IMG/VR virus record: IMGVR_UViG_3300028832_000098
Span: 17,241-81,240 of that record
DNA from: a virus
Lineage: Duplodnaviria; Heunggongvirae; Uroviricota; Caudoviricetes
Reading direction: 5' to 3' (one strand)
DNA: 64,000 bases
Part shown: in pieces, positions 482-59,643 of the stretch
How positions within the stretch are numbered: position 1 is the stretch's first letter
Layout of the letters: each line of letters begins with the position of its first letter
Program-made: the position numbers and the translations under genes
Notes under the pieces: generated by a model
The model's input: the letters and a program-made list of their open reading frames with translations, nothing else
The model's database searches: none
Told to the model about the DNA's origin: nothing

Positions 482-691
482 TCAGGCATCTTTATTTTGT
501 AAATCTTCAAAATTCTTTAATATCTTATCATCTGGACATATACAGTCAACGTAACAACTATCAAAATCATATCTTGTAAGCTTGTTATACTTACACCCAC
601 TACATACAATACTACCTACCCTCAATACAAAATCTGCGTGTGGACATTGTTTAAGACAAGCTTGATTCTTTATTTTACTTTCTATTATCAT
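482..691 (-). CDS. small Cys-rich hypothetical protein
   Basis: 69 aa ORF with several CxxC-like pairs. Confidence 0.6.
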   Translation of the reverse strand: MIIESKIKNQACLKQCPHADFVLRVGSIVCSGCKYNKLTRYDFDSCYVDCICPDDKILKNFEDLQNKDA

Positions 692-1226
692 TTGCTTGAT
701 TATTTAAAAAATTGTACATATCTTCAGGAGCTTTTAATGCGAGGCCTTTCTTAATTAAACCTCTGAAGTCGAAGTGATGTGAGTTGAGCCAATCAATTCC
801 TCGCCAGTTTTCTAATGGCGAAGTTCTTGTCTTTTGGAAAATCACTTGATAATGTTCTGGGTCACGTACTAATGAACAATGAATATTTATGAAACCCTTT
901 CCTGTACAACGGAAGCCAACTATCTTATAAATATCGTCATAAGCAAAGTCATATTTAGCATAGGAAATTAAATCCTCATCAGTCATACTTTCTAATGGGC
1001 GCAAATATGGTCTAATTGTACTTAGTTTACATTTTTGTGTAAGACCAAGTGTACAATAATCATATCCAATGTTTGTCAATGGACCGACGGCTTCCCTGTC
1101 TATAATATACTTATCTTTGTCTATATCAAAGTACCTGTTTATTCCTTTGCATATTACGCCGTACGACAGTCTCGCCGAAAGGTCTCTTAATAATAATTCA
1201 TTTTCTTCTGTTGTCATAATTTTCAA
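675..1226 (-). CDS. paralog family A protein
   Basis: LLLRDLSARLSYGV...PYLRPLESMT...IDWLNSHHFDFRGLIKKGLALKAPEDMY. Confidence 0.85.
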   Translation of the reverse strand: MKIMTTEENELLLRDLSARLSYGVICKGINRYFDIDKDKYIIDREAVGPLTNIGYDYCTLGLTQKCKLSTIRPYLRPLESMTDEDLISYAKYDFAYDDIYKIVGFRCTGKGFINIHCSLVRDPEHYQVIFQKTRTSPLENWRGIDWLNSHHFDFRGLIKKGLALKAPEDMYNFLNNQANDNRK

Positions 1227-1242
1227 TCTTAATAAACAGTTC

Positions 1243-1683
1243 TTACTTATTCAATAATTTGAAAAATTGTTTGTCTTTATGGTATATGTTTTTCTCATCA
1301 AGAAGTCCTTCCTTCCATAACGATTCATCAACGCTTGTATAACAGTCCTTATAAATACTCTCAAGAATTCTGAATAGTGAAAACCTTATAAGTTTCCTAT
1401 CTCTTTCACTCCCATCAAAATTTGAATTAGCCAATGTCCTACAGATATGTTTATTATAATCAGAAAATTCAATTTGATTAAAAGTATTCTTCCTGAAATA
1501 AACAAACAATGTTGCAACTGTACAATGTCCTGTGTAATCTTTTCCCTCTACTAATTTACCCAACGCATACTTAAATACAAACATCGCCTTGCCACAAAAT
1601 TGTTCGGAAGTATCAAGCGTATAGCTAATCTTTCCTCCGAGATTCTTAATCTCCTCCTCAACGAGATTCATATAAGCTTCCAT
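1243..1683 (-). CDS. hypothetical protein, paralog of 21175-21603
   Basis: Shared LGGK..GKAMF..KDYT..VAT..VY block. Confidence 0.75.
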   Translation of the reverse strand: MEAYMNLVEEEIKNLGGKISYTLDTSEQFCGKAMFVFKYALGKLVEGKDYTGHCTVATLFVYFRKNTFNQIEFSDYNKHICRTLANSNFDGSERDRKLIRFSLFRILESIYKDCYTSVDESLWKEGLLDEKNIYHKDKQFFKLLNK

Positions 1684-1738
1684 AATCCTATTCTTTTTTG
1701 TGATATTTGTTCATATCGCTTTAATATTATTCTCTCAT

Positions 1739-1972
1739 TTATCTCATCAGACCTCTTGAATGAAGGAGTTTAATAAGATTATCATGGATTTTCTTTTTTC
1801 TCTTTTCTAACTCTTCATCTTTCCACTTTGCCATCTCCATAGCCGCCCTTTGTAGGTCGCTATGATTATAACATCTAACATTTGTATTATAAACGTTCGT
1901 ATGATAGATATTTGACTGTACGCCTATCATTATACCGTTAGCTATCAGCTCTGCTTTCTCCTTGTTTTTCAT
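1739..1972 (-). CDS. small hypothetical protein (AMEMAKWKDE motif)
   Basis: Motif shared with 14641-14898 and 35737-36024. Confidence 0.7.
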   Translation of the reverse strand: MKNKEKAELIANGIMIGVQSNIYHTNVYNTNVRCYNHSDLQRAAMEMAKWKDEELEKRKKKIHDNLIKLLHSRGLMR

Positions 1973-2756
1973 AATTATTTTTTTTATTATTATACATATC
2001 GTCAGGAGCTTTTAATGCGAGTCCTTTCGCAATCAACCCTCTGTAATCAAAGTAACGTCCATTAAGAAAATCATATAGTATCTCGATATTGTTAGGTACA
2101 GGGCTGAACACTCCTTTAACAAGCTCACGATACTTATTAAATTCTTCTTCGGTCATTGATTGCATCGGACGAAGATATGGCCTGCAGCTGCTTATAAGAG
2201 GATGATACATGTCAGTATAAATAATCAGACTGTTATCAAGTCCGTCTCTTTTTTCCTTTACGAATATGTCATAAGGTAATCTTGCGAACAAGTCCTTACG
2301 CAGCAACTCAGACTCTTCACTTGACAATTCATCTTTTTCAACGGTGCCTTCAGATTTCGCATACATTCCTTCAGGAGCTTCCAGAGCGAGACCCTTTTCA
2401 ATTAAATGATTATAATCGAAATGATTTTCATTAAGCCACGTAATGACTTTGGAACACCATTCAGGATTTATTTTGCTTATATCATCCGTAAATGTCAAAG
2501 CCTCATAAATGCTTTTCTCCATGTCCGTCATACTTGACATCGGACGAAGAAACAACTTGACATGGTCTTGCGTGAACCTGAACGCGCCGCTGTCCACTTT
2601 CGCAATAAGAGGCTTGTCGTTATTTTCAGGCTCGATACCTATTAGTTCGCAAGTGTAATGACTTTTAGTCGCCTTAGCATAGAAATCTAATTTTACGCCG
2701 TATGGAAGCCTTGCTATCAGGTCTCTCATCAGCAATGTTTCATTTTCTGCAGTCAT
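1938..2756 (-). CDS. paralog family A protein with two tandem domains
   Basis: Two DL.ARLPY...LRPM.SMT...FDY..LI.KGLAL.AP..MY units. Confidence 0.85.
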   Translation of the reverse strand: MTAENETLLMRDLIARLPYGVKLDFYAKATKSHYTCELIGIEPENNDKPLIAKVDSGAFRFTQDHVKLFLRPMSSMTDMEKSIYEALTFTDDISKINPEWCSKVITWLNENHFDYNHLIEKGLALEAPEGMYAKSEGTVEKDELSSEESELLRKDLFARLPYDIFVKEKRDGLDNSLIIYTDMYHPLISSCRPYLRPMQSMTEEEFNKYRELVKGVFSPVPNNIEILYDFLNGRYFDYRGLIAKGLALKAPDDMYNNKKNNYEKQGESRADS

Positions 2757-2771
2757 AATTATTCTTTTAAG

Positions 2772-3230
2772 TTATATTTTATACATATCTTTCGGGGCTT
2801 CAAGAGCAAGCCCCTTATGAATAAGTTCTCTATAATCTATGTAGATAGAGTCCAGGTAGTCGCATATTTTGCCGATGGTATCAGCATACCTGCCTGTTAA
2901 GAAATGGAATCTGATACCTTTCACATCATTTATCGAAATCCAGTCTTCATCGGTGCCATCCGGATTAACCTTCGCAATTTTGAAAAGCTTATCCATTTCA
3001 TTCTCCGTTATTGAGGATACCGGGCGGAGGTAGGGCTTGCATGTTTCTATGTCAAAAATATCGGTGTCTGTTCCGTTATAATTCCAAATGACACATTCGT
3101 CGTCATTTATATTAACAGATTCAAGCTTTCCGATATTGTCCCCGTAATCATCTTCGTGGTATAATTTTACACCATACGGCAACCTCGCGCAAAGGTCTTT
3201 TAATAGCAACTGTTTTTCTTCTGCTGTCAT
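2772..3230 (-). CDS. paralog family A protein
   Basis: MTAEEKQLLLKDLCARLPYGVK...KGLALEAPKDMY. Confidence 0.85.
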   Translation of the reverse strand: MTAEEKQLLLKDLCARLPYGVKLYHEDDYGDNIGKLESVNINDDECVIWNYNGTDTDIFDIETCKPYLRPVSSITENEMDKLFKIAKVNPDGTDEDWISINDVKGIRFHFLTGRYADTIGKICDYLDSIYIDYRELIHKGLALEAPKDMYKI

Positions 3231-3517: not shown

Positions 3518-3922
3518 TTATATCAAATTTCTTTTTTTAAGCTTAGCTATCATTTCTACACAAGCATCAACAGCATCGAGGTGCCTGTTCGAATACACAT
3601 CAAAATAACGTGCTTCATAAGATGCTATATAATAATATGTTTTCATACCATCAGTCTGTTTATTAAGTGAAACTTCTAATGGTAAAATACCAAGCAATGC
3701 CGAAAGACTCCAAGCAGGAACCAATTTTACATTAAATGTTGTTTTTAACGAATCCTGTGTTCTTTTAATAGATGCTATTGCTTCTTTAGTTGTAAGCATA
3801 GCCAATCTATATTCCTCACCAGATATAGACTCCCATTGCATGTCTGCTGTGTTTGGGTCTATTCTCAACTCAGTAGTTAGTTTGATACTTTGCTCCAATG
3901 ATGTCGCTATCTTTGTTTCCAT
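3518..3922 (-). CDS. phage hypothetical protein (TSLEQS...PAWSLSALL type), possibly a distant relative of family B
   Basis: 134 aa ORF with the same overall layout as family B. Confidence 0.7.
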   Translation of the reverse strand: METKIATSLEQSIKLTTELRIDPNTADMQWESISGEEYRLAMLTTKEAIASIKRTQDSLKTTFNVKLVPAWSLSALLGILPLEVSLNKQTDGMKTYYYIASYEARYFDVYSNRHLDAVDACVEMIAKLKKRNLI

Positions 3923-3926
3923 AGTT

Positions 3927-5201
3927 TTATTCTTTTAGTAGTTTTTGTAAGTCTTCGTATAGAGAGGAAAGCACTCCGGTATCTTGTCTCCATGTTGTGC
4001 CTCCAAAAGTTAAGAAGTTGTTAAGAGTCTGCATTTGCTCTTCACTGGGTTTCCATTGAGGTTTGAATGATTTCAGTAATGATTTTAGTTTGGTTATAAA
4101 TGTAATAAATCCTTTTTGAGTCGCTTTCCCCGTATTACTGTTTTCAATAAGATAAACCAAATTATTGAACAGATTTTCATCCTCCTCACTCCAATAAGAC
4201 TTCTGTCCACCTTGCTTTTCAAGTTTCTTTCGCATATAACGGTACACTTTCTCCCAATTCGAATCAAGTATTGATTTTTCCAAATCTTCGCATTCCATGT
4301 TTGACATATTCATAGCTCCTGCGTATCTGTTATCGTCAAGATATTTAGTGAGTGAAGATGCAATGCCTCTGCAAATGGATTTATTCATTTCTTCTGGAGA
4401 AATTGAATTGCTATTACCTTCTTTTTCAAGGGATTCTAAGTCAGATAAATGAAGCCAATATAAGACATCGGTATCTTTTACTTTACCGGACCATCTGTAT
4501 TGACACCATTCTTCGCCAAGCCATTCTCCTTCTGCTACGCCATGAGTTGTAAGCATAAGAACGGAATGCTTTATTTGTGGCTTATTATCTGGGCGATTTT
4601 CTCTCCATCCAGTAACATAAGGATAGTCTAATCGTTTTTGTTCTCCTTGCTTTTCAAGCCAAGTAATTGCCTTATCTACAAAATCAACACTATCTTCATC
4701 TAAGTTATGATGCTTAATCTTGATTTCGTTAATAATCCATTTTCTTATCTCCTTATCCTCGCTCTCATTGAGTTCGGATGTTGAATTATCTTTAAGTATC
4801 CTCTCATCTTGTTTTTCAATCTTTACAACTCTATTTCTTTTTAATGATTTAAGCCAATTTTCAGCAAACCAAAGATTACCCATATCATTTTCATCTTTAG
4901 CAACAAGTCTTGCTTTTCCTATTGCAAATAGTACGTCATTATATCCAATCTCATCCTCCTCACTCCAAGAAGGCTTCTGTTCTCCTTGTTTTTCAAGCCA
5001 GGAAATTGCGGATTCTTTATCTATTTGAGAATAATGGCTATCACCATATTGTAGGACAAACTTAATAAGGTCTTTCCTCATCTTTTCATCTTTACTCTCT
5101 TTTAGCTCCGGAATTAAGGTTTCCAGAGCCTCACGTAACATTGTGAAACCACTGTGAGGCCAATTCTTTTTTATAACTTCTATTGCTTCTTGTCTTTCCA
5201 T
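3927..5201 (-). CDS. modular protein with KDE.IRK..WLEKQGEQK / WSEEDE repeats
   Basis: 424 aa ORF; repeats shared with the N-terminus of 7202-10159. Confidence 0.8.
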   Translation of the reverse strand: MERQEAIEVIKKNWPHSGFTMLREALETLIPELKESKDEKMRKDLIKFVLQYGDSHYSQIDKESAISWLEKQGEQKPSWSEEDEIGYNDVLFAIGKARLVAKDENDMGNLWFAENWLKSLKRNRVVKIEKQDERILKDNSTSELNESEDKEIRKWIINEIKIKHHNLDEDSVDFVDKAITWLEKQGEQKRLDYPYVTGWRENRPDNKPQIKHSVLMLTTHGVAEGEWLGEEWCQYRWSGKVKDTDVLYWLHLSDLESLEKEGNSNSISPEEMNKSICRGIASSLTKYLDDNRYAGAMNMSNMECEDLEKSILDSNWEKVYRYMRKKLEKQGGQKSYWSEEDENLFNNLVYLIENSNTGKATQKGFITFITKLKSLLKSFKPQWKPSEEQMQTLNNFLTFGGTTWRQDTGVLSSLYEDLQKLLKE

Positions 5202-7201: not shown

Positions 7202-10159
7202 TTACTTATAGTTTATTTCCTTTACCATCTCTTTCTTTTTGGCATCCCATTCGTAGCCGGCTTCTTTCATCTTATGAAATAGCAGGTCACGCTCTTCTTT
7301 GGTGGCAGGGCAGACCTCAATGCCATCTTCAATAGCATGAAACTTACCGCAATCCCTTCCATTGGTAAGCCTAAATGCTCCAGTTGCATGGGCAAAACAA
7401 TGGCTGATATAAACAGTCGGTGATGTAGGAAAACTTTTAAATATTGCTCCTTTAAATAGGAAATACGTATTTCCGATTGCAAGTACATCACCTTCTTTTG
7501 CATCTTCGATAGTCCAGAGATGACAAATTTTATCTATAAAATCAATAGGCTGAGTTTCTTTGGTACCATTGTCAGTAAATTCAATTTCATACTTATCACC
7601 GTCAATGTTTACTATAAACATGGGATGAAATCCTTCATGAAAAATCCACTGTCCTTTCTGAAACTTTGGACCAACCTTGTCAACAGGTTCCTGATTACAT
7701 TGTTTTCTTAATTCTTTATTTTTAGCATTCCATTCGTAGCCTGCTTCTTTCATCTTTTGAAAGAATAGGTTACGTTGTTCTTTAGTGGCAGGATGAGCTC
7801 CTTCTATGTCATGGAAACCTTCTCTATTTTCGAAAGATTGAGTACAGTGCCCTACAAGTCCGTAACTGCAAAAATTCTCTTTATTGTAAATACTTTTGAA
7901 TAAAGCAAGACACATACTACCATCCCATGCCAGTACATCTCCTTCTTTTGCATCTTCGATAGTCCAAAGACGACAGTTATTTTCATTATCAAAACCAATG
8001 GAATACTGTTTTCCTGTTTCGCCATTATACGAGATTACCTCATACCAAGACTCGCAAACCTCTATAATTTTGTATACGCTTACATCATTATGCACAATCC
8101 AGTCACCTACCTTGAACTTTGGGTAAGCCCTAACGATAGATTCCTGATTACATTGTTTTCTCAATTCCTTATTTTTAGCATCCCATTCGTAACCGGCGTC
8201 TTCAATCTTTTGAAGTAGTAAGTCACGTTGTTCGTTGGTAGCAGGACGGAAAGCTGTCTTATTTTGTAAAGTTTCTACATGAAAACTTGGATTGTACCCC
8301 ATATAATGATATGTACAGTGACATCTAATATTCAATCCGGCAATGTTTTTGAATAGTACATAACATTCGTGACCTGCAAGTACATCACCATCCTTTGCAT
8401 CTTCGATAGTCCAAAGATTGAAGTCGCTGTCTATACAATCAATGCCGGAAAAACGTTTGGTGCCGTCAATGAATTCAAATTCATACCTATTATTTTTGAT
8501 GTCCGTTATAAGTATAGGGTTAAATCCTTCACCTATAACCCAGTCCCCTACTTTGAATTTTGGTCCAACTTTATTAGATTCCGGATGGCTTCGTTTTCTC
8601 AATTCCTTATTTTTAGCGTCCCATTCATATCCTGCCTCCATCATCTTTTGGAATAATATGTCACGCTGTTCCTTGGTTGCTATTTTAATAGTTTTTGATT
8701 TAATAGTTCCGCAATGTAGGTTATCTTTTTGAATAATAATTTCATCTGAACGAAAATTATAACAAGCATAAAAATCAATAACATCATTCCAAACATCATT
8801 ACCAATTTTTCTAAAGATAGTTATTGAATCATCATCAGCCAGCACATCACCATTCCTTGCATCTTCAATAGTCCAATGATGATAGTTATTATCCAATGGT
8901 AAACAAGGATAATGAGTGATACCATCAACGTCCTCCAATGACAAATATCCGCAACTAATATTCTTTATAAAAAATACTTCTTTCTTATCATTATGAACAA
9001 TCCAATCGCCATTATGAAATTTAAAGAAATCTCGTCCTTCTTTGGTTGCTTTAGATACTGAATCACGAAATTTGAATAAATCTCGTTCTTTGATTTCTTC
9101 TTGTGCTGAATTGCCTTTCTTATCAGGCTGATAAACATCATGAACTCTATCATGGAGGCTTTGCAGTTGCTCATGGAGTTCTTCTTCTTTTTCAGTCATT
9201 TTCATACAACATTCCAAGGCAAGAACATCATCGAATGTAAACTTAGGAAATATTACTTTACCATCTTTATTTTGGTTTTCAAGCAAAGCTACAACATCTT
9301 TGCATTTGTCCTTGAAAGATTTAAGCCAAGTGGCAATTCTGCCTGAAGAGACATTATCTCCATTAAATACAGTTATGTTATTAGTCGTGAAAAGTTCGTT
9401 TGGGTGCATATTAGTGAATATAGCTAAGAGTAAATCCACAAACCCATTATCCTCTTCACTCCAAACAAGTTTCTGCTCACCTCGTTTTTCATGTTCAAGA
9501 TAGCATCTTCCTAATTCTGTTATATCTTGACATGATTGAGAAGGTTGAGCTTTCCTGCATTTATCACAAGCCGTTTCTTTCTGCTCACCTTGTTTTTCAG
9601 ACAAAGTCTTACCATATTCCATGGCATCCTTGCATTTGACCTTGATATTGTCATAAAAGTCCTTCAAATCGCCATTATCGGCATACCTTTCAACCATGGC
9701 AGCAATGGACTCAATCGTCGCCTTATATGGATTGTAGTCAGCTTGCTCAACTTGTTTTTCAAGCAAAGCCTTATCATCTTTTATAGAGCATTTGTCTTTA
9801 AAAGATTTGAGCCAATCTATCTGGTCGGAATCAAGTAAGCCGGTTCCGTCTATACATTCAATGATAGATTCAAGCATTTTTCTGTCTTGCCCTTTCAATT
9901 CAGGACTATGGTCAAAACAAAGTTCAACCTTATCGATTTCCTTCTTGTCTTGCTTTTCAATCCAAGCAACCCATTCTTTGGTCGGATAACCGTGTTCATA
10001 AAGGTCTTTGAAATAATCAAGTATTTCTTTCCTTATCTTCTCATCCAAGCTCTCTACAAGTTCTGGAAAGATGGATTCCAATCTTCTTTTTTCTGCACCT
10101 GTCATACACTTTGAGTAGGCCTCTCTCGCTTTCTCTAATAGTTTGTTGTAATTTTCCAT
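7202..10159 (-). CDS. large modular repeat protein (5 x FK.GDW...WTIEDAK.GDVL...PATKEQR..L..KM.EAGYEW units)
   Basis: 985 aa ORF; repeats visible in both protein and DNA. Confidence 0.9.
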   Translation of the reverse strand: MENYNKLLEKAREAYSKCMTGAEKRRLESIFPELVESLDEKIRKEILDYFKDLYEHGYPTKEWVAWIEKQDKKEIDKVELCFDHSPELKGQDRKMLESIIECIDGTGLLDSDQIDWLKSFKDKCSIKDDKALLEKQVEQADYNPYKATIESIAAMVERYADNGDLKDFYDNIKVKCKDAMEYGKTLSEKQGEQKETACDKCRKAQPSQSCQDITELGRCYLEHEKRGEQKLVWSEEDNGFVDLLLAIFTNMHPNELFTTNNITVFNGDNVSSGRIATWLKSFKDKCKDVVALLENQNKDGKVIFPKFTFDDVLALECCMKMTEKEEELHEQLQSLHDRVHDVYQPDKKGNSAQEEIKERDLFKFRDSVSKATKEGRDFFKFHNGDWIVHNDKKEVFFIKNISCGYLSLEDVDGITHYPCLPLDNNYHHWTIEDARNGDVLADDDSITIFRKIGNDVWNDVIDFYACYNFRSDEIIIQKDNLHCGTIKSKTIKIATKEQRDILFQKMMEAGYEWDAKNKELRKRSHPESNKVGPKFKVGDWVIGEGFNPILITDIKNNRYEFEFIDGTKRFSGIDCIDSDFNLWTIEDAKDGDVLAGHECYVLFKNIAGLNIRCHCTYHYMGYNPSFHVETLQNKTAFRPATNEQRDLLLQKIEDAGYEWDAKNKELRKQCNQESIVRAYPKFKVGDWIVHNDVSVYKIIEVCESWYEVISYNGETGKQYSIGFDNENNCRLWTIEDAKEGDVLAWDGSMCLALFKSIYNKENFCSYGLVGHCTQSFENREGFHDIEGAHPATKEQRNLFFQKMKEAGYEWNAKNKELRKQCNQEPVDKVGPKFQKGQWIFHEGFHPMFIVNIDGDKYEIEFTDNGTKETQPIDFIDKICHLWTIEDAKEGDVLAIGNTYFLFKGAIFKSFPTSPTVYISHCFAHATGAFRLTNGRDCGKFHAIEDGIEVCPATKEERDLLFHKMKEAGYEWDAKKKEMVKEINYK

Positions 10160-12187: not shown

Positions 12188-12976
12188 TTAGATGTCATAT
12201 CGTTCCGCTTCTTCCTTAGTTCTGAAAAAATGTATACCTTCTCCGCATTCAACATTATATTTTGTATTGAAATTTTTAATCTCCAATACATCACCCTTTC
12301 TATACTCGAAACTATAGAATAATATCGAGTGCTGGATGCCCTTGCATTTCTTTACGATTGCCTTATTGGTACGGCATTTGTCCTTGTTTATTGAAAACAC
12401 TGTCGCTCCTTCCGGTATCTCCAATTCTATTACGTTTCCTTCGAACGTCTTCTTGTATCCTTTCATCGGTTCTTTTAAAACCATACCGAGCCTGCATTTT
12501 TCGGAATCGTCAAATTTGGCTCCATTCAGATTAGCTCCGCTAAAAGTAGTCTTACCTAAAATGGCTCCTCTCAAGTCTGCGCCGTCTAAATCAGCACGAC
12601 TCAAATCTGCGCCGGTCAAACCGGCATTACTCAAATTAGCTCCTCTTAAATTGGCTTCATAAAAACTGGCTTCATTCAAATAAGCGCCAGCTAAATAGGC
12701 GTCACTCAAATTGGCTCCTGTTAAATTGGCTTCAAATAAATTGGCTCCAGCTAAATTAGCATTCCTCAAATGAGCTAATCTTAAATCGGCGCCATCTAAA
12801 TCGACTCCTTCTAAATTGGCACCAATCATACAGGCTTTCCTCAAATCGGCACCTGTCAAAGTGACATTACTCAAATCACCTCTCAAGCTGGCACGCATAA
12901 GTTCCCATCCGTCACAGTCCTTGTTTAACCAATGCTGATGTTGTTCTATTATGTCGTTTAACTCTTTTTGTGTCAT
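12188..12976 (-). CDS. pentapeptide-repeat protein with C-terminal phage domain (DUF5758-like)
   Basis: A[DN]L.G repeats over about 125 aa; C-terminal GYKK..LEIP..KCR...EC..GIHFF. Confidence 0.9.
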   Translation of the reverse strand: MTQKELNDIIEQHQHWLNKDCDGWELMRASLRGDLSNVTLTGADLRKACMIGANLEGVDLDGADLRLAHLRNANLAGANLFEANLTGANLSDAYLAGAYLNEASFYEANLRGANLSNAGLTGADLSRADLDGADLRGAILGKTTFSGANLNGAKFDDSEKCRLGMVLKEPMKGYKKTFEGNVIELEIPEGATVFSINKDKCRTNKAIVKKCKGIQHSILFYSFEYRKGDVLEIKNFNTKYNVECGEGIHFFRTKEEAERYDI

Positions 12977-13001
12977 AGCTTTAATTATTTAAATTGTACA
13001 T
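12968..13001. repeat. 34-bp direct repeat spanning a gene junction (second copy at 13380-13413)
   Basis: ttgtgtcatagctttaattatttaaattgtacat is identical at both sites. Confidence 0.9.
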
Positions 13002-13388
13002 ACCCTCAGGAGCATCTAATGCAAGACCTCTGTCAATAAGTCCAAGAAAATCAAAATGATGTTCAATGAGCCATTCAATAGTAAACGCTATATTATATTC
13101 AAATGTTAATCCAACTCTTCTAACTAATATTTGATGGTGACGATAAACTGCTTTCTCTACTTTTGTCATTGAACTCATTGGACGAAGATACGGCTTAACA
13201 TCTTCTATGTCAGCAAAAAGTGTGTCACCATCTGGTAATAAAGTACCGCATTCATTTTTCAAAAGTAGTTTCGAGTCAGAACATAAGGAATCAATCGTAC
13301 CAATTTCATTTTGGTATAGGACTTTGACTCCATACGGCAATCTTGCCGAAATGTCCTTAAATAAAATTTGTTTTTCCTCTTGTGTCAT
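12981..13388 (-). CDS. paralog family A protein
   Basis: KDISARLPYGVK..KPYLRPMSSMT..HHFDFLGLIDRGLALDAPEGMY. Confidence 0.85.
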   Translation of the reverse strand: MTQEEKQILFKDISARLPYGVKVLYQNEIGTIDSLCSDSKLLLKNECGTLLPDGDTLFADIEDVKPYLRPMSSMTKVEKAVYRHHQILVRRVGLTFEYNIAFTIEWLIEHHFDFLGLIDRGLALDAPEGMYNLNN

Positions 13389-13392
13389 AGCT

Positions 13393-13878
13393 TTAATTAT
13401 TTAAATTGTACATTCCCTCTGGAGCCTCCAATGCCAAATCTTTCTCAATTAAGTTGTGACAGTCAAAATGATGTTCTGTGAGCCAATCAATAGCATCTAC
13501 AATGGAATAAAGAGGATATTCGTCAAGCCATAAGTCTATGAAAGCGTAATTTGAATTATCTCTCTTCATCAATTCAACAGTATCAAATTCAAAGAATTCA
13601 ATTCTAAACTCATCCAATTCTTTTTTTGTCATTGACGATAGTGGACGAAGGTATGGCTTATATCGTAATTTATCCTTGTGTATAAGTTTATCTTCTCCAG
13701 CGAATTCCAAATTACTTTCTTTCCTTTTCGAAAAAGAATACTTTATACTTAATGAATTTACATCCACATAATCTAATGTATATATTTCATCAGGCTTATA
13801 TAAGCATTTGATTTTTACGCCGTGAGGCTGTCTTGCGCATAAATCCTTAATCAATAATTCTTTTTTCTTTTGTTCCAT
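13393..13878 (-). CDS. paralog family A protein
   Basis: KDLCARQPHGVK..KPYLRPLSSMT..ALEAPEGMY. Confidence 0.85.
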   Translation of the reverse strand: MEQKKKELLIKDLCARQPHGVKIKCLYKPDEIYTLDYVDVNSLSIKYSFSKRKESNLEFAGEDKLIHKDKLRYKPYLRPLSSMTKKELDEFRIEFFEFDTVELMKRDNSNYAFIDLWLDEYPLYSIVDAIDWLTEHHFDCHNLIEKDLALEAPEGMYNLNN

Positions 13879-14161: not shown

Positions 14162-14638
14162 TTAGTCATACATACCATCTGGAGCCTGCAATGCCAAACC
14201 CATTGGAATCAAACCACGGTAGTCGAAGTGATTCTCATTGAGCCAGTCAATTTCTTCAATATAGGAACCTCGTCCTACATACACAGTTGAAACAACTTCT
14301 TTGTCATTTTCATCTTTGTAGGCAATTTGTACGCACCAGCAATTATCAAGGAAGAGTTCAGTTTCCTTTATCCTCAAATCTTTCCTACATCTTTTATCTC
14401 TTGCAAGATAAAGGGTAACCAATTCCAGTTTTTCCTTATCCGTCATTGAAGACAATGGACGGAGATATGGCTTTACTGGTGGCTCTATATAATCACCGTT
14501 TCCATAGAATAAATCTATAATGTATGAGTCGCCTATATGTAACTCATACATTCTTCCCATATCATCAAGCACCTTGACCTTATATGGTAGTCTCGTACAA
14601 AGTTCTTTTAACAGTAATTGCTTTTCTTCTGCTGTCAT
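14162..14638 (-). CDS. paralog family A protein
   Basis: Likely start MTAEEKQ at 14638; family motifs present. Confidence 0.85.
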   Translation of the reverse strand: MTAEEKQLLLKELCTRLPYKVKVLDDMGRMYELHIGDSYIIDLFYGNGDYIEPPVKPYLRPLSSMTDKEKLELVTLYLARDKRCRKDLRIKETELFLDNCWCVQIAYKDENDKEVVSTVYVGRGSYIEEIDWLNENHFDYRGLIPMGLALQAPDGMYD

Positions 14639-14640
14639 AA

Positions 14641-14898
14641 CTATTCCTCCAATTTCTTTCTTAAACGGTGAATTAACTCGGTGCAATCAGCAAATGAAAC
14701 ATTGTTTCTACATATTTCTTTCCTCATTTCGTATGCTTCATCAAGAATCTTAGCAAACTGCTCATCTTTCCACTTAGCCATCTCCATAGCACACGCAAAG
14801 CCTGCACTCTCAGTATCTGGTGAAGCGATTCCTAATTGACCTCTTCTGAAATAATCTCTTGCAAGGTCTCTTGCTTTTTCTCTTACTTTTGCATCCAT
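14641..14898 (-). CDS. small hypothetical protein (AMEMAKWKDE motif)
   Basis: 85 aa ORF. Confidence 0.7.
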   Translation of the reverse strand: MDAKVREKARDLARDYFRRGQLGIASPDTESAGFACAMEMAKWKDEQFAKILDEAYEMRKEICRNNVSFADCTELIHRLRKKLEE

Positions 14899-14959: not shown

Positions 14960-15130
14960 CTATTCCTCCTCAAGAATTAAGGGTTTTTGACCATTACAAT
15001 AGACCCAATCAAGAGCATCTTTAACTCCTTCTTCATAACTACGAAAAGAATCAGTATTTCCTTCGTTTATACACTTTGAACATTCATCCATAAGTTGCAT
15101 TGCTTGTTCTTTTTTATCTTCTGTTATCAT
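14960..15130 (-). CDS. small hypothetical protein (56 aa, not in ORF track)
   Basis: MITEDKKEQAMQLMDECS...YEEGVKDALDWV. Confidence 0.55.
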   Translation of the reverse strand: MITEDKKEQAMQLMDECSKCINEGNTDSFRSYEEGVKDALDWVYCNGQKPLILEEE

Positions 15131-15141
15131 AATCCCATAAA

Positions 15142-15513
15142 TTATAAGTCATAGTCAAATCCGTACATTTTACAATACACATCCACAATAATACCAAGCT
15201 CGTCTAAGAGCGTCTTATGACGAAGCTCCGCAGACTTAAAATCTGTAGGTTTGTTGTCATGGCATTCCCAAAGCCAGCTATGTAATCTGTTTATGGAATC
15301 TGTATTCTTACAGAAGGAATCCATATCAAATTCGCAGGCAGCTTGCTTTTTAGTAGTGTATTTAATGATATTTCCTATATTGGACGTGACATGAATCTCG
15401 GTGCAATAACCATCTTCATGCTGCTCCAGGTTACATTCTATTTCGAATATATCTATATCCGACGTCTCGTTATCATATATTATTTTATATGTACTCGTGC
15501 GTTTTATCTTCAT
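15142..15513 (-). CDS. hypothetical protein
   Basis: 123 aa ORF. Confidence 0.65.
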   Translation of the reverse strand: MKIKRTSTYKIIYDNETSDIDIFEIECNLEQHEDGYCTEIHVTSNIGNIIKYTTKKQAACEFDMDSFCKNTDSINRLHSWLWECHDNKPTDFKSAELRHKTLLDELGIIVDVYCKMYGFDYDL

Positions 15514-15556
15514 AGCTTTGTTTTTTTAATCTGTTGTTATTTGAAATCCATATTTT

Positions 15557-15763
15557 TTACTCCGTTAATTCTTGCGCCTTGTTAATAATCATTTCATCAG
15601 GAATGATGCTAAGTAATTCGTCGAATAGCTTTCTTGACTGAATTTCGTTTATTAAGGCTTCGTCAGATGCGTTCACACAGAACTAATTGCCTATTGCTTC
15701 ATCCTGCTGCCTGCTTGTATGTTCAAGCAGGTTGTCAGTGTTTATCGTAACCGTAATTTCCAT
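15557..15763 (-). pseudogene. 68-codon gene interrupted by one in-frame TAG (15683-15685)
   Basis: MEITVTINTDNLLEHTSRQQDEAIGN*FCVNASDEALINEIQSRKLF...; fills the intergenic gap. Confidence 0.65.
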
Positions 15764-15785
15764 AATTTATACTTTATATGATAAC

Positions 15786-42611: not shown

Positions 42612-42613
42612 AA

Positions 42614-43012: not shown

Positions 43013-43018
43013 AACTAC

Positions 43019-43240: not shown

Positions 43241-43244
43241 AATC

Positions 43245-43568: not shown

Positions 43569-43574
43569 AATCGT

Positions 43575-43964: not shown

Positions 43965-44077
43965 AGCCAATCATAAAATTTAATCAATAAACGTCCAATG
44001 TAAAATATTGCAACAGCAACTAATGTCATCGGGAAAAATATACCTATTAAATATCCGATTATAATTAGAGCTATCAT
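43961..44077 (-). CDS. 38-aa hydrophobic peptide (not in ORF track)
   Basis: MIALIIIGYLIGIFFPMTLVAVAIF...; ATGA overlap with the next gene. Confidence 0.5.
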   Translation of the reverse strand: MIALIIIGYLIGIFFPMTLVAVAIFYIGRLLIKFYDWL

Positions 44078-44079
44078 AT

Positions 44080-44451
44080 CTATTTCTCCTCCCATTCTAT
44101 TTTAGACGTAGAAACATATCCTCGTCCGGCGATACCTGCCTCTATAGCTTGTTCTTTAGTATCATATATGGTATTACCGGCATAAATTCCTTTCTCAGAC
44201 CTGTAAATGTTTATCCATTTTTCATGCTTTACTGGAGCCATCATGAGGTCTGCCTTATTGTCACCACTTGAACTTGAATATTCACCTTTTATAGTGTAGT
44301 GAACCGGATATTCATAATCGTTCTCATCTATTAACGCTATAATAGGATATTTTTTGTCTTTACAGTCATAACATATTATTCTGGCCTTATGTCCATCTCT
44401 TGTGCAGATTGGACAACCTTTCTTAGCATCCTCTAAATTAAACGGTTTCAT
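44080..44451 (-). CDS. phage hypothetical protein (MKPFNLE..TRDG..ARI type)
   Basis: 123 aa ORF with a recognisable phage N-terminal motif. Confidence 0.75.
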   Translation of the reverse strand: MKPFNLEDAKKGCPICTRDGHKARIICYDCKDKKYPIIALIDENDYEYPVHYTIKGEYSSSSGDNKADLMMAPVKHEKWINIYRSEKGIYAGNTIYDTKEQAIEAGIAGRGYVSTSKIEWEEK

Positions 44452-44863
44452 TTTCTTTATTTTTAGTCGATAACTGTTGTAACAATGCGTCAGCGCAAGC
44501 TACCGCGAATTTTGCGACTCCAACAGGAATCGAATGTATTTCACCTTCTTCATAAGCTTCTACTATTGTATGACGGAACTGGTCGTAATTGGCAAGAATG
44601 CCGTTCATTGCGGATATTGCAACCTGTGTTCTCTTATCAAGAGCATAATCAGACATAAACCCTTTGAACTTGTTCGCGTCCATTGTCATAACCTCTGGCT
44701 CATTGTTATCATTGATAACCTGCCACTTATCGACAGGCGTCATATCAAATTTAAGCAGACCAGTACTGTCAATATATGATACAGTCCCATACTCTCTTGA
44801 ATAACCGAAGTTATCGACAATCTCTCCTGTTTGTAAATTCTTTGCTTTCATATCATAAACCAT
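44438..44863 (-). CDS. phage hypothetical protein (AISAMNGIL..AV..ADALL type)
   Basis: 141 aa ORF. Confidence 0.75.
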   Translation of the reverse strand: MVYDMKAKNLQTGEIVDNFGYSREYGTVSYIDSTGLLKFDMTPVDKWQVINDNNEPEVMTMDANKFKGFMSDYALDKRTQVAISAMNGILANYDQFRHTIVEAYEEGEIHSIPVGVAKFAVACADALLQQLSTKNKENETV

Positions 44864-45225
44864 TCAAATCCCTTTATAAAATCACCAAGGCTTGGAGTAA
44901 TTATATATTCAGTACCATCCTTTCGTTCTATGATTCTGTAATAGCTGCCTCTGATTTCCTCAATTTTCTGCGACGCATCCGGGAACTTCTCACATGCCTC
45001 CACTATCCATGGATGGGAACGATACTTATATTCGTGCCAAACAGAACTGCGCAAATTGTAATTATCCAATTGTACAAAGGCCAAATTTTTATCTCCAAAA
45101 CTGGAAATAATATCACTAATGAGAGGAGATATGACTGATTGTATTATCGCCTTATTGAATAACCATTCAGCCTGCTCCTTGGTATACTGAAATACTCCTA
45201 CCTTATTGTTTATTACAACTTTCAT
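44848..45225 (-). CDS. hypothetical protein
   Basis: 125 aa ORF. Confidence 0.65.
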   Translation of the reverse strand: MKVVINNKVGVFQYTKEQAEWLFNKAIIQSVISPLISDIISSFGDKNLAFVQLDNYNLRSSVWHEYKYRSHPWIVEACEKFPDASQKIEEIRGSYYRIIERKDGTEYIITPSLGDFIKGFEWFMI

Positions 45226-45234
45226 AAAACCATT

Positions 45235-45253
45235 TTATATAAAAAACAACATT
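45235..45253 (-). promoter_or_regulatory. putative middle promoter motif, copy 8
   Basis: ttatataaaaaacaacatt on plus strand. Confidence 0.75.
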
Positions 45254-45479
45254 TAACATTAAACCTTGCTCATTCTTCTGCTTTCAACCTTGAATGCCTT
45301 CATGACGAATTCCAGCAATATAGGCATAGTCCTATTTCATTACCATTCTTGTATCAACAAACAGATTTTTACTGTGAAGATATTCGCAGAATGGAATGGC
45401 CTGATTCCAGCTATAGAATTCTTTTGACCTCAGAACAGACTGATATTCATCATGATATATTACTACTATAACCATAGGC

Positions 45480-45887
45480 CTATAAAAGTTTCGTTAAGCA
45501 ATACTTAATGGCATCCATAGCAGCATCTTCATAGGTATTGTATAACGTATTTAATACAAGACGCTTTACCTCTTCAAATTCTTTTTGTTTTATGAATTTT
45601 ATTGCAATACCATATTGGTATTTTTCGTTTTCATCTTCCTGATTAACGTTACTATAGAGTTCATAGTCTATTTCAATGAATAATTTATGTACTTCTCTCA
45701 GCCACTTCATTGCCACTTGAAGTGTTGGTGCTGAGCATAATTCATCTATACCGTCAAGGTCTTTTTCAAAAGAATCAGCATAGTAATATAAATTCCCTTT
45801 CGTCGAATACCAATCTAAGCATTTCCAATCAAATCTATTTTCTTTTAGCAGCTTCGCAATTTTGAAGCTTACGTAATCTTCTTTCAT
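45480..45887 (-). CDS. paralog family B protein
   Basis: EDYVSFKIAKLLKE..SAPTLQVAMKWLRE..YCLTKLL. Confidence 0.85.
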   Translation of the reverse strand: MKEDYVSFKIAKLLKENRFDWKCLDWYSTKGNLYYYADSFEKDLDGIDELCSAPTLQVAMKWLREVHKLFIEIDYELYSNVNQEDENEKYQYGIAIKFIKQKEFEEVKRLVLNTLYNTYEDAAMDAIKYCLTKLL

Positions 45888-45922
45888 ATCTTATTCCTCA
45901 TTTTTTTTATTCTCAATTGCAC

Positions 45923-46201
45923 TCACTTATAATGTTCTTCCCAGAAGTAGTCGATGAACTCCTTCGGCACATGATAGAACTCTCCGAACTTGTCTAAGCA
46001 CCACTTCATTGCAACTTGAATCTCAGGCGCTGAGAACAGCTCCGTTCCGCCTCCGTTGTAGTCGTCCGTCTTGATTTCCTCGCAGTTGAGGTAGTGGCTT
46101 TCCGCGTCACCTATCCATAATGCGGACACTGGCTCACTGAATCCATTCACCTTCAGCCACACAGCCGTCTCGTATCCAACATATTTTCTTTCGTCTCCCA
46201 T
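45923..46201 (-). CDS. paralog family B protein, short and visibly GC-richer
   Basis: YVGYETAVWLK..GF..SAPEIQVAMKW. Confidence 0.75.
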   Translation of the reverse strand: MGDERKYVGYETAVWLKVNGFSEPVSALWIGDAESHYLNCEEIKTDDYNGGGTELFSAPEIQVAMKWCLDKFGEFYHVPKEFIDYFWEEHYK

Positions 46202-46203
46202 AA

Positions 46204-46611
46204 TTATAAAAGTTTGGTTAAGCAAATTTTGATGGCTTCCATAGCAGCCTCCTTATAAGTTTCATAAAAGACAGCTTCTACAAAATCAGAAAGCATGCTC
46301 TCATAGTCAGAATCTGTTTTTTGTAAGACGACATAATAACCTGAGCTTCCTTCGCAAGCAAAAGAATCAAGCATTATCTGTATGTAGATATGCTTTTCTT
46401 CCCTCAACCACTTCATTGCCATTTGAAGCGTCGGACATTTTATTCTGTCATGCGAATTCTTGACGGGTGTGCCTTTATATTCAAAAGGCCATCCTCGATA
46501 CAAAGTCACACCTGACTCGAAATATTCGTAGCAAGCATAGCAAGTTCCGTCAAATCCTTTTTCTTTAAGCAGGTTAGCGACCTCAAATGATACATAATCT
46601 TCTTCAACCAT
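46204..46611 (-). CDS. paralog family B protein
   Basis: EDYVSFEVANLLKEKGF..CPTLQMAMKWLRE..CLTKLL. Confidence 0.85.
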   Translation of the reverse strand: MVEEDYVSFEVANLLKEKGFDGTCYACYEYFESGVTLYRGWPFEYKGTPVKNSHDRIKCPTLQMAMKWLREEKHIYIQIMLDSFACEGSSGYYVVLQKTDSDYESMLSDFVEAVFYETYKEAAMEAIKICLTKLL

Positions 46612-50266: not shown

Positions 50267-50285
50267 TTATATAAAAAACAACGTT
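50267..50285 (-). promoter_or_regulatory. putative middle promoter motif, copy 9
   Basis: ttatataaaaaacaacgtt on plus strand. Confidence 0.75.
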
Positions 50286-51595
50286 TATTCCACAGCCTTT
50301 ATGTTTATCTTTGATTTCACGACATATAAGATGTCACATGTTTCAGTGATGAGGTCCTTTATCTCCTGAGTATCCTTATAAGCCTGAGGCGACTCGTCAA
50401 GAGTTCCTTCGCATACTGTCGTCGAATAGACTCCCTTCATAGATTCCTTGAAATCAGACATAGAAACCTCTCTTTTCGCTTGCGACCTCGACATCCTACG
50501 TCCTGCTCCGTGCGAGCAGGAATTCAGCCATTCGCCGTTTTCCTTTCCGACACATACCGCAACACCGTCCCTCATATTAAAGGGTACAAGAATCTTTATG
50601 CCTTTATAAGCAGATATTGCAGACTTCCTGAGGACATGGTCATTAAGGTCTATATAATTATGGGTTGTCTTGACAACTTCAGTCACCTTGATTCCATATT
50701 TGTTCAATATGCCGGCAATTATGTCTCCCGTAATCTTATGGTTGTATGCAGCGTACATCTGTGCGAAACACATATCCATAAGATAGCCTTTAAGATTCTC
50801 TCCAGTAAGGTATCCTGTTATGTGATTCTTCATAATGGATTCCTGATATTCCGAAAGGACGTTCTTAAATTCAGACATATCTTTATGGCTTGACTTGTAT
50901 TCATCTTTGAATTTATTCACAAGCTCCTTCATTTTCTGCTTAGGATACGGCGTAATCGTTTTCGACATCCAGTATTTGCATACCTTTACGCCGAAATTCC
51001 TTGAACCGAAATGAAGCGTCACCCCGGAATGTTTCTTATCCTCCGTCTCGCCATATTCGATAAAGTGGTTTCCACCTCCGACAGTCCCTATCGAATGATA
51101 GAAAACAGCTGGGTCCATATTAAGGCGTTTAAGTTGTTCGATAACCCATTTCTCGCTGACGACCTCAGGTAATCCAGAAAGCATTTCAGGCCAGCGGTTC
51201 TTATAAACGCAAAAAGCCTTTGTAAGATATTTGTAGAAATCTTTCTCATCGAAGATTGTCTTGTTGTGGATATTCATACCGAACGGTATCTGGGTCTTAA
51301 CCTTATGTTCGAAATCAGCATACTTGTCATCAGGCAGACACTTGTCAAGCACAAGCATAGAAATGCTGCAACCTATGTCGACGCCTATATGTTCTGGGCA
51401 TACATAGTCTCCGATAGTCGCCACAAGCCCACAAGGACCAGATGCGCCGACATGTACGTCAGGCATACAGGCAACTTTCTGCCCAGCAAACGCTCTACAG
51501 TTGATAATATCATAAACCTGCTGGTATACTCCTTCTTCTACGGTTTCAGCGAAGATTTTCGCAGTAGCATATTTTCCTTTAAGTTCTATCATCAC
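50285..51595 (-). CDS. rtcB: RNA ligase RtcB
   Basis: MPDVH, GVDIGC, GT.GGGNHF.E, HFGSRN.G, HNY, SHGAGR, DE.PQAYK. Confidence 0.95.
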   Translation of the reverse strand: MMIELKGKYATAKIFAETVEEGVYQQVYDIINCRAFAGQKVACMPDVHVGASGPCGLVATIGDYVCPEHIGVDIGCSISMLVLDKCLPDDKYADFEHKVKTQIPFGMNIHNKTIFDEKDFYKYLTKAFCVYKNRWPEMLSGLPEVVSEKWVIEQLKRLNMDPAVFYHSIGTVGGGNHFIEYGETEDKKHSGVTLHFGSRNFGVKVCKYWMSKTITPYPKQKMKELVNKFKDEYKSSHKDMSEFKNVLSEYQESIMKNHITGYLTGENLKGYLMDMCFAQMYAAYNHKITGDIIAGILNKYGIKVTEVVKTTHNYIDLNDHVLRKSAISAYKGIKILVPFNMRDGVAVCVGKENGEWLNSCSHGAGRRMSRSQAKREVSMSDFKESMKGVYSTTVCEGTLDESPQAYKDTQEIKDLITETCDILYVVKSKINIKAVE

Positions 51596-58536: not shown

Positions 58537-58542
58537 AGCCTA

Positions 58543-58956
58543 TTATTTTTTAATGTCATACATTCCTTCAGGAGCTTCAAGAGCGATTCCCTTTTCAATA
58601 TAACCTCTGAAATCAAAGTGATGCTCGATGAGCCAATCAGTTACAAAAATCAGCTGTGTTCTATCAAGAGTAGATATGTTATAATCTACACTATCCTGTT
58701 CGAGGCAGTCATCACATAACTCATCATATTCTTTTTTCTCTTCTTTCGTCATTGACGATAGTGGACGGAGATAAGACTTTATTTCATCAGCATCCCTTCC
58801 TGAAAAAATGTCCATCACTGTGTTTAACACCGCAAGTCAGTTCTTCGCAATCAAATTCTCTTAAAGAGCAAATTTCATTGTCAACTTGTACATAAAGACC
58901 ATAAGGCATTCTTGTACATAGTTCTTTAATCAACAGTTGTTTTTCTCTTGTGTCAT
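58543..58956 (-). pseudogene. family A gene with two offsetting frameshifts
   Basis: MTQ(E)EKQLLIKELCTRMPYG is recovered in a shifted frame; the C-terminal family motif is back in the ATG frame; total length 414 nt. Confidence 0.75.
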
Positions 58957-58977
58957 AGTCTTATTATTTAATTATTT

Positions 58978-59232
58978 TTATCGGTTAATAATTATAGCTG
59001 CAATACAACATAATAAACCAATTATAAAAGTTATTACTATAATTGCATCTTCTCCGCTACAAGTTGTACAAACAGTAGGGCAATCTCTTTCGATAGATAT
59101 TTCCTTATGAAATTCTCTATGGCAAGAATCACATACAAATGTGCATTCTTTCGTTTTGCGTGTATGGCTGTGATGATTGATGACACTCGTTCTTGCTCCC
59201 GTCATTGACGATGAATAAATTCCTGGATTCAT
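58978..59232 (-). CDS. Zn-ribbon plus C-terminal TM protein, paralog of 59646-59909
   Basis: CDSC...PTVC..C followed by a hydrophobic tail. Confidence 0.7.
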   Translation of the reverse strand: MNPGIYSSSMTGARTSVINHHSHTRKTKECTFVCDSCHREFHKEISIERDCPTVCTTCSGEDAIIVITFIIGLLCCIAAIIINR

Positions 59233-59245
59233 AACGCTATCTCAT

Positions 59246-59494
59246 TTAACTTATCTTTATTGTCACATCCCTTATCGTCAAATCTTCAAGAAGAAGAACT
59301 TGTGACGTATATGGGAATCTTTTCTTGCCGGTTAACATATCTTCAAGCCACCATGTTTGTTCATCCTTCATAAGTTTCCCTATACACAATTTATTGTCAT
59401 CTGATATATAGGCGAACAATTTTCCTTCAGGTTCAATGCTTGGATTGAATTGTTTGAATCCGCCGAGGATAACCGCTTTCTCTGTAGTTTTCAT
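59246..59494 (-). CDS. hypothetical protein
   Basis: 82 aa ORF. Confidence 0.65.
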   Translation of the reverse strand: MKTTEKAVILGGFKQFNPSIEPEGKLFAYISDDNKLCIGKLMKDEQTWWLEDMLTGKKRFPYTSQVLLLEDLTIRDVTIKIS

Positions 59495-59505
59495 AGCTTT
59501 TATTT

Positions 59506-59643
59506 TTATTTGTTAATACTTGAAGGAGCATCCAATGCGAATCCTCTCATCTTTAATTCGTTCATATAATTCGTATATCCGCCTTTATAAGGCAGATGTT
59601 TGTTTAGCCATTCAAAAGCTTCACATAATAAAATCTTTTCCAT
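59506..59643 (-). CDS. 45-aa mini-protein resembling the family A C-terminus (not in ORF track)
   Basis: EWLNKHLPY..G...L..RGFALDAP. Confidence 0.5.
   Translation of the reverse strand: MEKILLCEAFEWLNKHLPYKGGYTNYMNELKMRGFALDAPSSINK

Follow-up and report, generated by a model that had tools for sequence, protein, structure and literature searches.

T4-type phages possess plastic accessory regions and polymorphic internal proteins, and expansions of multi-copy families occur in large viruses. Here, we analyzed a stretch of 64,000 nucleotides, referred to below as the window, which corresponds to bases 17241-81240 of the 153,699-bp IMG/VR virus record IMGVR_UViG_3300028832_000098, from a large uncultured jumbo phage of the rumen, and carries multiple copies of a small protein, termed family A, in which three constant blocks (N-terminal, middle, and C-terminal; N, M, and C) frame two variable segments (V1 and V2). 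The described system closest to this design is the gp38 tail-fiber adhesin of T-even phages, whose hypervariable segments are situated between conserved glycine-rich motifs (Trojet et al. 2011, PMC3157838). In gp38, the conserved motifs form the core, exchanges take place in the conserved motifs, and the library is common to the population (PMC3157838). The segment design is also credited to Tetart et al. 1998, as cited in PMC3157838.

Like those of gp38, the variable segments of family A are bounded by conserved motifs, and the breakpoints fall in the motifs. Unlike gp38, which is a single virion adhesin, family A is multi-copy (1-48 copies per genome), small, acidic, and apparently non-structural, and its genes reside in accessory arrays. 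Its variable parts are two modules, predicted to be folded and under purifying selection, whereas gp38 has four short loops. Furthermore, family A has no sequence or fold relation to gp38, lacks glycine-rich blocks, is surrounded by small unknown genes, and gave no adhesin match in Pfam or PHROG. With the accessory regions of T4-type phages, it shares the arrangement in arrays of small, fast-turnover genes and a copy number that varies between related phages, but what is exchanged is a module smaller than a gene, set in a constant protein frame, not whole genes between regulatory cassettes. The best explanation, to which we assign a probability of roughly one-half, is that the proteins of this module-shuffled family would serve as intracellular binders or inhibitors that together make up a combinatorial repertoire.

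A hidden Markov model (HMM) of the family was built from the aligned family A copies (12 pieces) and run on the six-frame translation of the window. The window contains nine intact genes with 10 domains, one frameshifted full-length copy, and one weak relic, all on the minus strand. The intact copies matched with E values of 1e-42 to 1e-47, and the two-domain gene reached 6e-83, scores that are far beyond chance. The first gene, 675-1226, has its likely start at ATG 1217, encodes 180 amino acids (aa), and has a long V2 of 54 aa (E 5e-46). It is followed by the two-domain gene 1938-2756 (domain a, 2343-2756, E 1e-44; domain b, 1938-2342, E 7e-37) and by 2772-3230 (152 aa, E 4e-43). The gene at 12981-13388 (135 aa, E 1e-46) is the shortest canonical form and the basis of our reference model; 13393-13878 (161 aa, E 1e-45) is its tandem neighbor. 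Next comes 14162-14686, with a likely start at ATG 14638, 158 aa, and a long V2 of 56 aa (E 2e-45). The gene 16510-16938 (142 aa, E 8e-42) is the sole basic copy of this genome, with an isoelectric point (pI) of 8.5, and its start overlaps by one base with 16938-17357 (139 aa, E 1e-44). The ninth gene, 36836-37291 (151 aa, E 5e-42), stands apart from the others and has an extended N-terminus. Just upstream of the window, the record (G000:C1) contains two additional intact copies, at 14997-15386 and 15397-15783. For the 153,699-bp record as a whole, the tally comes to 12 intact genes with 13 domains, plus one copy with a frameshift and one possible relic.

Translations of these genes display three blocks: an N-terminal block that reads roughly E-K-x-L-L-x-K-D-L-x-A-R-L-P-Y-G-V-K, a middle block K-P-Y-L-R-P-M/L-S-S-M-T, and a C-terminal block D-W-L-N-x-H-H-F-D-Y-R-G-L-I-x-K-G-L-A-L-E-A-P-E-G-M-Y. 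In the alignment of the 12 pieces, the blocks are in register and the stretches between them vary in length and sequence. This agrees with a preliminary description of the window, which had reported three constant blocks in the listed open reading frames (ORFs), separated by apparently unrelated segments of differing length. That description had counted 10 genes with 11 domains; nine genes with 10 domains stand, whereas the tenth, the ORF at 58543-58830, obtains its N-block only from another frame and is part of the frameshifted copy at 58543-58960. In a three-frame translation, the N-block of this copy lies in the frame of 58790-58960 and M-V2-C in that of 58543-58836, with a 1-nt shift at a run of six T residues; the HMM matches in the different frames have E values of 4e-34 and 7e-7. 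This copy is either a pseudogene or an assembly error. For the 45-aa C-terminus-only version at 59506-59643, the WLN.H ... G.AL.AP pattern is indeed present and the E value is 7e-9 when the piece is included in the model, but it is 0.07 with an independent model, so that the piece is a plausible candidate for a degenerate C-terminal relic of family A.

The diversity of the modules became apparent when family A was compared across phages. From 83 loci, we obtained 225 domains, divided each of them into five segments (N, V1, M, V2, and C) according to profile position, and removed near-identical duplicates, which left 200 non-redundant domains; segments with at least 50% identity were regarded as shared and those below 30% as unrelated. 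At 50% identity, these domains comprise 172 V1 types and 155 V2 types. Among the pairs sharing V1 (n = 29), V2 was also common in 2 and below 30% identity in 26, and among the pairs sharing V2 (n = 58), V1 was below 30% identity in 55. The expected number of double-sharing pairs is ~0.08 under full independence and ~29 under ordinary divergence.

The same picture was obtained at the DNA level. Loci L052 and L067 match perfectly (100%) from the upstream flank to the middle block, N and V1 included, after which identity falls to 30-60%. In L016 and L011, identity is 96-100% on both sides of V2, whereas V2 itself differs in length and shows 0-46% identity, a replacement that amounts to a double crossover. 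In three other pairs (L004/L044, L033/L048, and G000-15397/L005), only N-V1-M is alike (86-100%), and the flanks are at background (~40%). The steps in identity can also be followed block by block. Pairs sharing V1 have a raised mean identity in N (0.80 versus 0.61-0.67) and in the first two-thirds of M (0.77-0.81), and the last third of M is near baseline (0.64 versus 0.58). For pairs sharing V2, the increase is confined to the last third of M (0.71 versus 0.58) and the first third of C (0.79 versus 0.59). These steps therefore place the crossovers inside the middle block and inside the C-block.

The genome under study takes part in this exchange. Its own paralogs have no variable segment in common (variable identity ≤0.29), and 7 of its 12 domains each have one module with a counterpart (≥50% identity) in another phage. 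The copy G000:15397-15783 is a chimera that combines the V1 of L005_11965 (41/44 residues, 93%) with the V2 of L005_1623 (8/12 residues, 67%). The V2 of the 675 gene (54 residues) is 89% identical to that of L005_12773, and the V1 segments are unrelated; against G005 332.1 kb, the 3' half of this gene is 63-90% identical in nucleotides, with 78% over 307 nt in the V2 region, and the 5' half is at background. Domain a of 1938-2756 has a V1 that is 62% identical to that of L004_11026 and an unrelated V2. Conversely, L071 carries two paralogs with an identical V2 and unrelated V1 segments. A blastp search for V modules outside family A found no match in 115 loci. Together, the near independence of V1 and V2 across phages and the drops of DNA identity inside the middle and C blocks support recombination between constant blocks as the source of diversification, in line with the preliminary description.

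We assessed whether the blocks are similar because of recent DNA exchange among the paralogs. A stretch of 35 nt with 2 mismatches, which had been taken to exemplify high DNA identity in the blocks, is real, but the blocks of the paralogs are generally only 60-80% identical. At block columns with an identical amino acid, the same codon was used in 1142 of 2740 comparisons versus 1029 expected from the codon usage of the genome. Across phages, the blocks have a proportion of synonymous differences (pS) of 0.61-0.68 and a ratio of nonsynonymous to synonymous rates (dN/dS) of 0.11-0.19; their synonymous sites are near saturation. Since same-codon use is close to expectation, the blocks must be maintained by selection at the protein level and not by recent gene conversion, and the paralogs are old; the codon test thus rules out wholesale gene conversion among the window paralogs. 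The only clear recent intragenomic exchange tract is a 34-bp exact repeat at 12968-13001 and 13380-13413, which comprises the last family A codons, the stop codon, a spacer, and the ATGACACAA of the next gene. With this repeat included, the 3' ends of the 13393 and 12981 genes are 81% identical over 119 nt. The gene following the repeat is a family A gene in one copy and a pentapeptide-repeat gene in the other. The latter gene (12188-12976), directly downstream of a family A gene, codes for pentapeptide repeats and, at the C-terminus, DUF5758 (Pfam E 4e-35 and 1.5e-13).

Alternatively, family A could consist of ordinary diverged paralogs whose variable segments are fast-evolving homologues, the mosaics resulting from chimeric assembly across the blocks. 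The absence of a variable segment common to two paralogs of this genome and the near-saturated synonymous sites are compatible with such a view; conserved blocks of up to ~35 nt could mislead short-k assemblers, and some mosaic loci terminate near contig ends. However, DNA segments of 90-100% identity directly adjoin unalignable segments of different length, and the L016/L011 double crossover has near-identical flanks on both sides in different metagenomes. Moreover, 39 non-redundant V2-sharing pairs are 60-90% identical and hence diverged, not derived from the same reads, and V1 and V2 sharing are almost uncorrelated (r 0.17). Assembly chimerism is insufficient because it does not account for double crossovers and for common modules that have diverged to 60-90% identity, and a frameshift does not explain the mosaics because the differing segment is unalignable as DNA. 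We therefore regard ordinary divergence or assembly artefact as largely refuted and as the least probable of the explanations considered here.

Next, the selection acting on the modules was estimated from pairs with a common module at 60-99% identity. Pooled dN/dS values were 0.22 in the 18 V1 pairs and 0.16 in the 39 V2 pairs, and no single pair exceeded 1. This purifying selection indicates that the diversity reflects a large pool of conserved types that are recombined, not hypermutation of loops. A diversity-generating retroelement was rejected. No RVT_1 domain was detected in the 154-kb record, which is a genome fragment, whereas control genomes matched; there was also no repeat resembling a template/variable repeat (TR/VR) pair, and the variable segments are unalignable and of differing length.

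Which family do these proteins belong to? All ten window proteins matched phrog_10841 (PHROGs v4, unknown function) with E values of 2e-4 to 3.8e-10, the best matching stretches spanning profile positions 3-158 of 163. A Pfam-A scan of the window proteins gave nothing better than E 0.1, NCBIfam gave no match at E ≤1, PADLOC gave no meaningful match, and a PDB sequence profile search returned chance-level matches only. The RyR domain (PF02026) was considered and discarded, the likeness being confined to the local motif hPLlRP..lTe.EK of RyR3 chain 4erv (E 0.74), with no Pfam RyR match at E ≤1. When 1.84 billion cluster representatives (clusters at 50% identity) were searched exhaustively with the profile, family A comprised 8351 proteins at E ≤1e-3, 4065 at ≤1e-10, and 981 at ≤1e-30, and a word-indexed search yielded at least 8000 candidates.

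Members of family A were found in IMG/VR on contigs of up to 413 kb. In a collection of species genomes, all matches lay on contigs of metagenome-assembled genomes (MAGs) from rumen or herbivore gut, with inconsistent taxonomic labels, and the carriers included several single MAG contigs of 286-410 kb, which are evidently misbinned phages. Family A is virus-only and occurs in Bacteroidota-type phages. The public "MAGs" concerned are labeled Firmicutes, Bacteroidales, Erysipelotrichaceae, or Bacilli and look like misbinned or misdeposited jumbo phage genomes; examples are ONIZ01000001.1 (410,106 bp; L091/L104), CACYXI010000001.1 (286,648 bp; L085), CADBGE010000001.1 (400,076 bp; L092), and JAGAYY010000025.1 (376,162 bp; L110). 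As suggested in the preliminary description, we counted copies across phages. In 18 phage genomes that are ≥90% complete (240-413 kb), we obtained 1, 2, 2, 3, 4, 5, 5, 5, 6, 6, 7, 7, 7, 7, 15, 17, 27, and 48 copies, the last number being counted at a looser threshold.

Among cultured phages, relatives are scarce. A tblastn search with a window copy as the query gave no match in 50,697 phage records, and a consensus-like member compared with these deposited genomes matched only the Cellulophaga phages phi10:1 and phi13:1. These relatives differ from family A in the window in being single-copy and only ~28-31% identical. The phi10:1 protein gp046 contains the full set of three blocks and reaches 51.8 bits with the family HMM; its gene is one of a series of small hypothetical genes. 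When viral contigs were scanned for exact 27-mers with the aim of finding near-identical contigs of 235-238 kb, there was no match.

AlphaFold2 models were computed for two copies, the 135-aa protein (12981-13388; alignment of 62 sequences) and the 180-aa protein (675-1217). The 135-aa model has a predicted local distance difference test score (pLDDT) of 89.9 and a predicted template modeling score (pTM) of 0.83; it comprises a helix (3-19), a five-strand barrel (22-69), two more helices (76-91 and 96-109), and a C-terminal tail that is ordered; pLDDT is 96 for the N-block helix and 95-98 for the C-tail. Mapped onto this model, the N-block corresponds to the helix and strand 1, V1 to strands 2-4 with their loops, the middle block to strand 5 and the turn into helix 2 (the RPMSSMT turn), V2 to the helical hairpin, and the C-block to the end of the last helix and the 25-residue ordered C-terminal tail. 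The 180-aa model (pLDDT 81) has the same core, but its 54-residue V2 is predicted to form a three-stranded sheet (pLDDT 90-95) with one helix before and one after it. We are confident that the predicted fold of family A consists of an N-terminal helix, a small Sm/Tudor/SH3-like β-barrel, a variable insert, and a conserved C-tail. Because the two models keep the core and differ in V2, the variable parts appear to be folded sub-structures and not loops. Of the display scaffold with exposed loops that had been envisaged at the outset, the common core with variable inserts is thus borne out by the two models, whereas the loops are not.

The N-block model bears on the idea that family A proteins are packaged into the virion and injected, their common N-terminus serving as a capsid-loading tag. 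The N-block is predicted to be an integral helix of the fold, not a separable leader, and it lacks an ending resembling an L/I-x-E protease site; these features rule out a T4-type capsid-targeting leader. In addition, the family A genes lie among small non-structural genes, and the homologue in the Cellulophaga phage is annotated as hypothetical only. A role as virion cargo is consequently very improbable in our judgment.

Searches of the PDB with both models (Foldseek and VIA-align) recovered only generic small barrels (Hfq, Tudor, KOW, PWWP, and SH3) with Z scores of 3.3-4.4, the best neighbors being Hfq, Tudor, KOW, PWWP-ssDNA, and OapB. When superposed on Hfq or Tudor, residues 2-72 gave a root mean square deviation (rmsd) of 1.9-3.2 Å over 50-64 residues; against Sm/Hfq, the values were Z 3.3-3.9 and rmsd 2.6-3.6 Å over 56-64 aligned residues, below the level that the search tool regards as meaningful. 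Small β-barrels of the Sm/Hfq, Tudor, SH3, KOW, and PWWP types resemble the family A models in having a helix at the N-terminus ahead of a bent barrel of five strands. They differ in lacking the helical or β insert and the conserved C-tail and in showing no sequence match, and family A is acidic, not basic. A structural hit to Acb4 was weak (E 0.17, template modeling score 0.18-0.31) and was dismissed. The BFVD search returned only uncharacterized phage proteins, and the ESM Atlas search returned only unnamed viral clusters, one of which contained a DUF6794 fusion.

These neighbors raise the question of whether the paralogs are nucleic acid-binding regulators that recognize different RNAs or DNA sites through the barrel. 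The nearest structures and the helix-then-barrel topology common to Sm/Hfq, Tudor, KOW, and PWWP would speak for this, but Z scores in this range are at noise level for small barrels, and no Sm, KOW, or Tudor Pfam match was obtained even at E 1. Furthermore, the family A domains have a median pI of 4.95, 90% of them are below pI 6, and the mean charge is −3.9 for V1 and −2.3 for V2. This acidity counts against general nucleic acid binding despite the Sm/Tudor-like barrel, and we consider such a function improbable.

Small acidic phage proteins that bind host proteins are a common pattern. The acidic pI of family A and its position among small accessory genes would fit a binder or an anti-defense role. 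In our interpretation, family A is a group of virus-specific, small (~130-180 aa), mostly acidic, cytoplasmic proteins. Their three constant blocks provide a fixed frame into which the two modules V1 and V2 are set. Our comparisons show that both modules come from a very large stock of types and are reassorted independently among genes and phages. Reassortment proceeds by homologous recombination, the crossovers lying within constant blocks that are constrained at the protein level, such that N and V1 are exchanged with a crossover in the middle block and V2 is exchanged as a cassette between the middle and C blocks. In the mechanism that we propose, V1 and V2 together would form the target-recognizing surface and the frame would supply the fold. 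The likely targets would be host proteins engaged in defense or takeover or the proteins of competing phages, and the phage population would hold its modules in one common library, in the manner of the gp38 adhesin segments of T-even phages. A more specific version, in which rumen Bacteroidota jumbo phages keep a population-wide V1 × V2 recognition library whose paralogs neutralize different defense or competitor-phage proteins, is possible but tentative.

Several observations weigh against a repertoire of binders. The purifying selection on the modules is evidence that they function, not evidence of an arms race. No sequence or structural relative of known function was found in Pfam, NCBIfam, PADLOC, PDB, or BFVD. 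The mosaic evidence comes entirely from metagenome assemblies, in which individual single-breakpoint cases may be chimeric. Finally, the conserved polar residues Asp-12, Arg-16, Arg-69, Ser-72, Ser-73, Thr-75, Glu-78, Asp-105, Asn-108, His-111, Asp-113, and Arg-115 could constitute a ligand- or partner-binding or even a catalytic site, as opposed to a passive frame.

The last point leads to the main rival, a hub-adaptor arrangement in which the constant blocks dock all paralogs on one conserved partner of the phage or the host, such as a protease, a polymerase, or the ribosome, and V1 and V2 recruit substrates or sense signals. About a dozen nearly invariant polar residues within the blocks would suit a docking surface, as would the ordered and highly conserved C-tail; yet the conserved positions are mostly hydrophobic, as in a core, and, according to the model, the C-tail packs against its own domain and is not free. 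Rare fusions of the family A domain in other phages, to DUF6794, a class II aldolase-like domain, a GNAT acetyltransferase, and a phrog_1945-like barrel, can be read as traces of such a hub, but some of them are possibly gene-calling read-throughs. The partners of the longer fused forms are heterogeneous and uninformative, and DUF6794 had no match in this genome, a weak test given that control genomes likewise gave no match. Synteny of family A with the repeat protein 7202-10159 in five phages also favors a common partner. On balance, we judge the hub-adaptor arrangement unlikely, though less so than nucleic acid binding or a place in the virion. No target is pointed to by homology, structure match, or fusion partner, and a scan for sigma-70 promoters and terminators found no enrichment. 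A shuffled repertoire of small intracellular binders is the most likely role, with the common-partner variant as its main rival.

Family A is accompanied by other multi-copy families. A second one, family B, has members at 7202-10159, 3927-5201, and 15786-16259 of the window; the first is a 985-aa ORF with internal repeats of ~450 nt. The motifs W-T-I-E-D-A-K-E-G-D-V-L and W-L-E-K-Q-G-E-Q-K ... W-S-E-E-D-E are common to the three ORFs, and family B has no Pfam match. Of 115 family A loci, 50 contain relatives, with 72 members in all; family B is syntenic with family A arrays in G001, G002, G003, and G005, and the repeat protein 7202-10159 is syntenic with the arrays in five other phages. The metagenomic protein P0138 is a fusion of a family A domain with a family B-type domain. 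Other small multi-copy families beside family A also look constant-variable-constant (for instance, L011:7249-7656 and L033:16511-16906) and gave no Pfam matches. One of them has the conserved ends I-T-E-D-Y-V-S-F-E-V-A-K-L-L-K-E-K-G-F ... C-L-x-N-L-I (97 copies in 57 loci); another carries Y-T-D-L-E-Q-S-K-K-L-A ... P-C-W-S-L ... V-D-A-C-V (43 copies in 30 loci, including 3518-3922 of the window). Module shuffling may therefore be general to these accessory regions.

Further features were noted elsewhere in the window. The intergenic motif TTATATAAAAAACAACGTTT, which may be a phage promoter or terminator element, is present at about ten gene-cluster boundaries (~11805, 20585, 27239, 30864, 34494, 37871, 45235, 50267, 57821, and 63189), and a 96-nt composite element, separate from TTATATAAAAAACAACGTTT, recurs at 39254, 56547, and 61279. 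A paralog family of four or five proteins of ~130 aa occupies 42222-46611 (42222-42611, 43575-43970, 45480-45887, 46204-46611, and possibly 45923-46225). The window also encodes an RtcB ligase (E 1e-99), a Thg1-like tRNA-His guanylyltransferase (E 3e-46), tRNA-Arg(CCT), and an SbcD/gp47-like recombination nuclease; the coordinates of these RNA-repair, tRNA, and nuclease genes are, jointly, 50285-51595, 23364-24425, 27043-27115, and 62108-63169.

In the literature, we found no paper on phrog_10841 or the block motifs, no relevant work on paralogs of jumbo or huge rumen phages, and no earlier description of the expansion and mosaicism of this family. The principle of shuffling is itself known from gp38; what is new here is a very large family with motif-guided module shuffling in a multi-copy, intracellular setting. 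With more than 8000 clusters at 50% identity and up to dozens of genes per genome, family A is among the largest phage protein families without annotation. Our results extend gp38-type motif-guided shuffling to an intracellular multi-copy family and offer a concrete handle on functional diversity in huge phages. Because a cultured Cellulophaga phage carries a homologue in single copy, the function is open to bench experiments. Should the modules serve as target-recognition units, family A would constitute a natural library of small binders and, at the same time, a map of what phages must neutralize.

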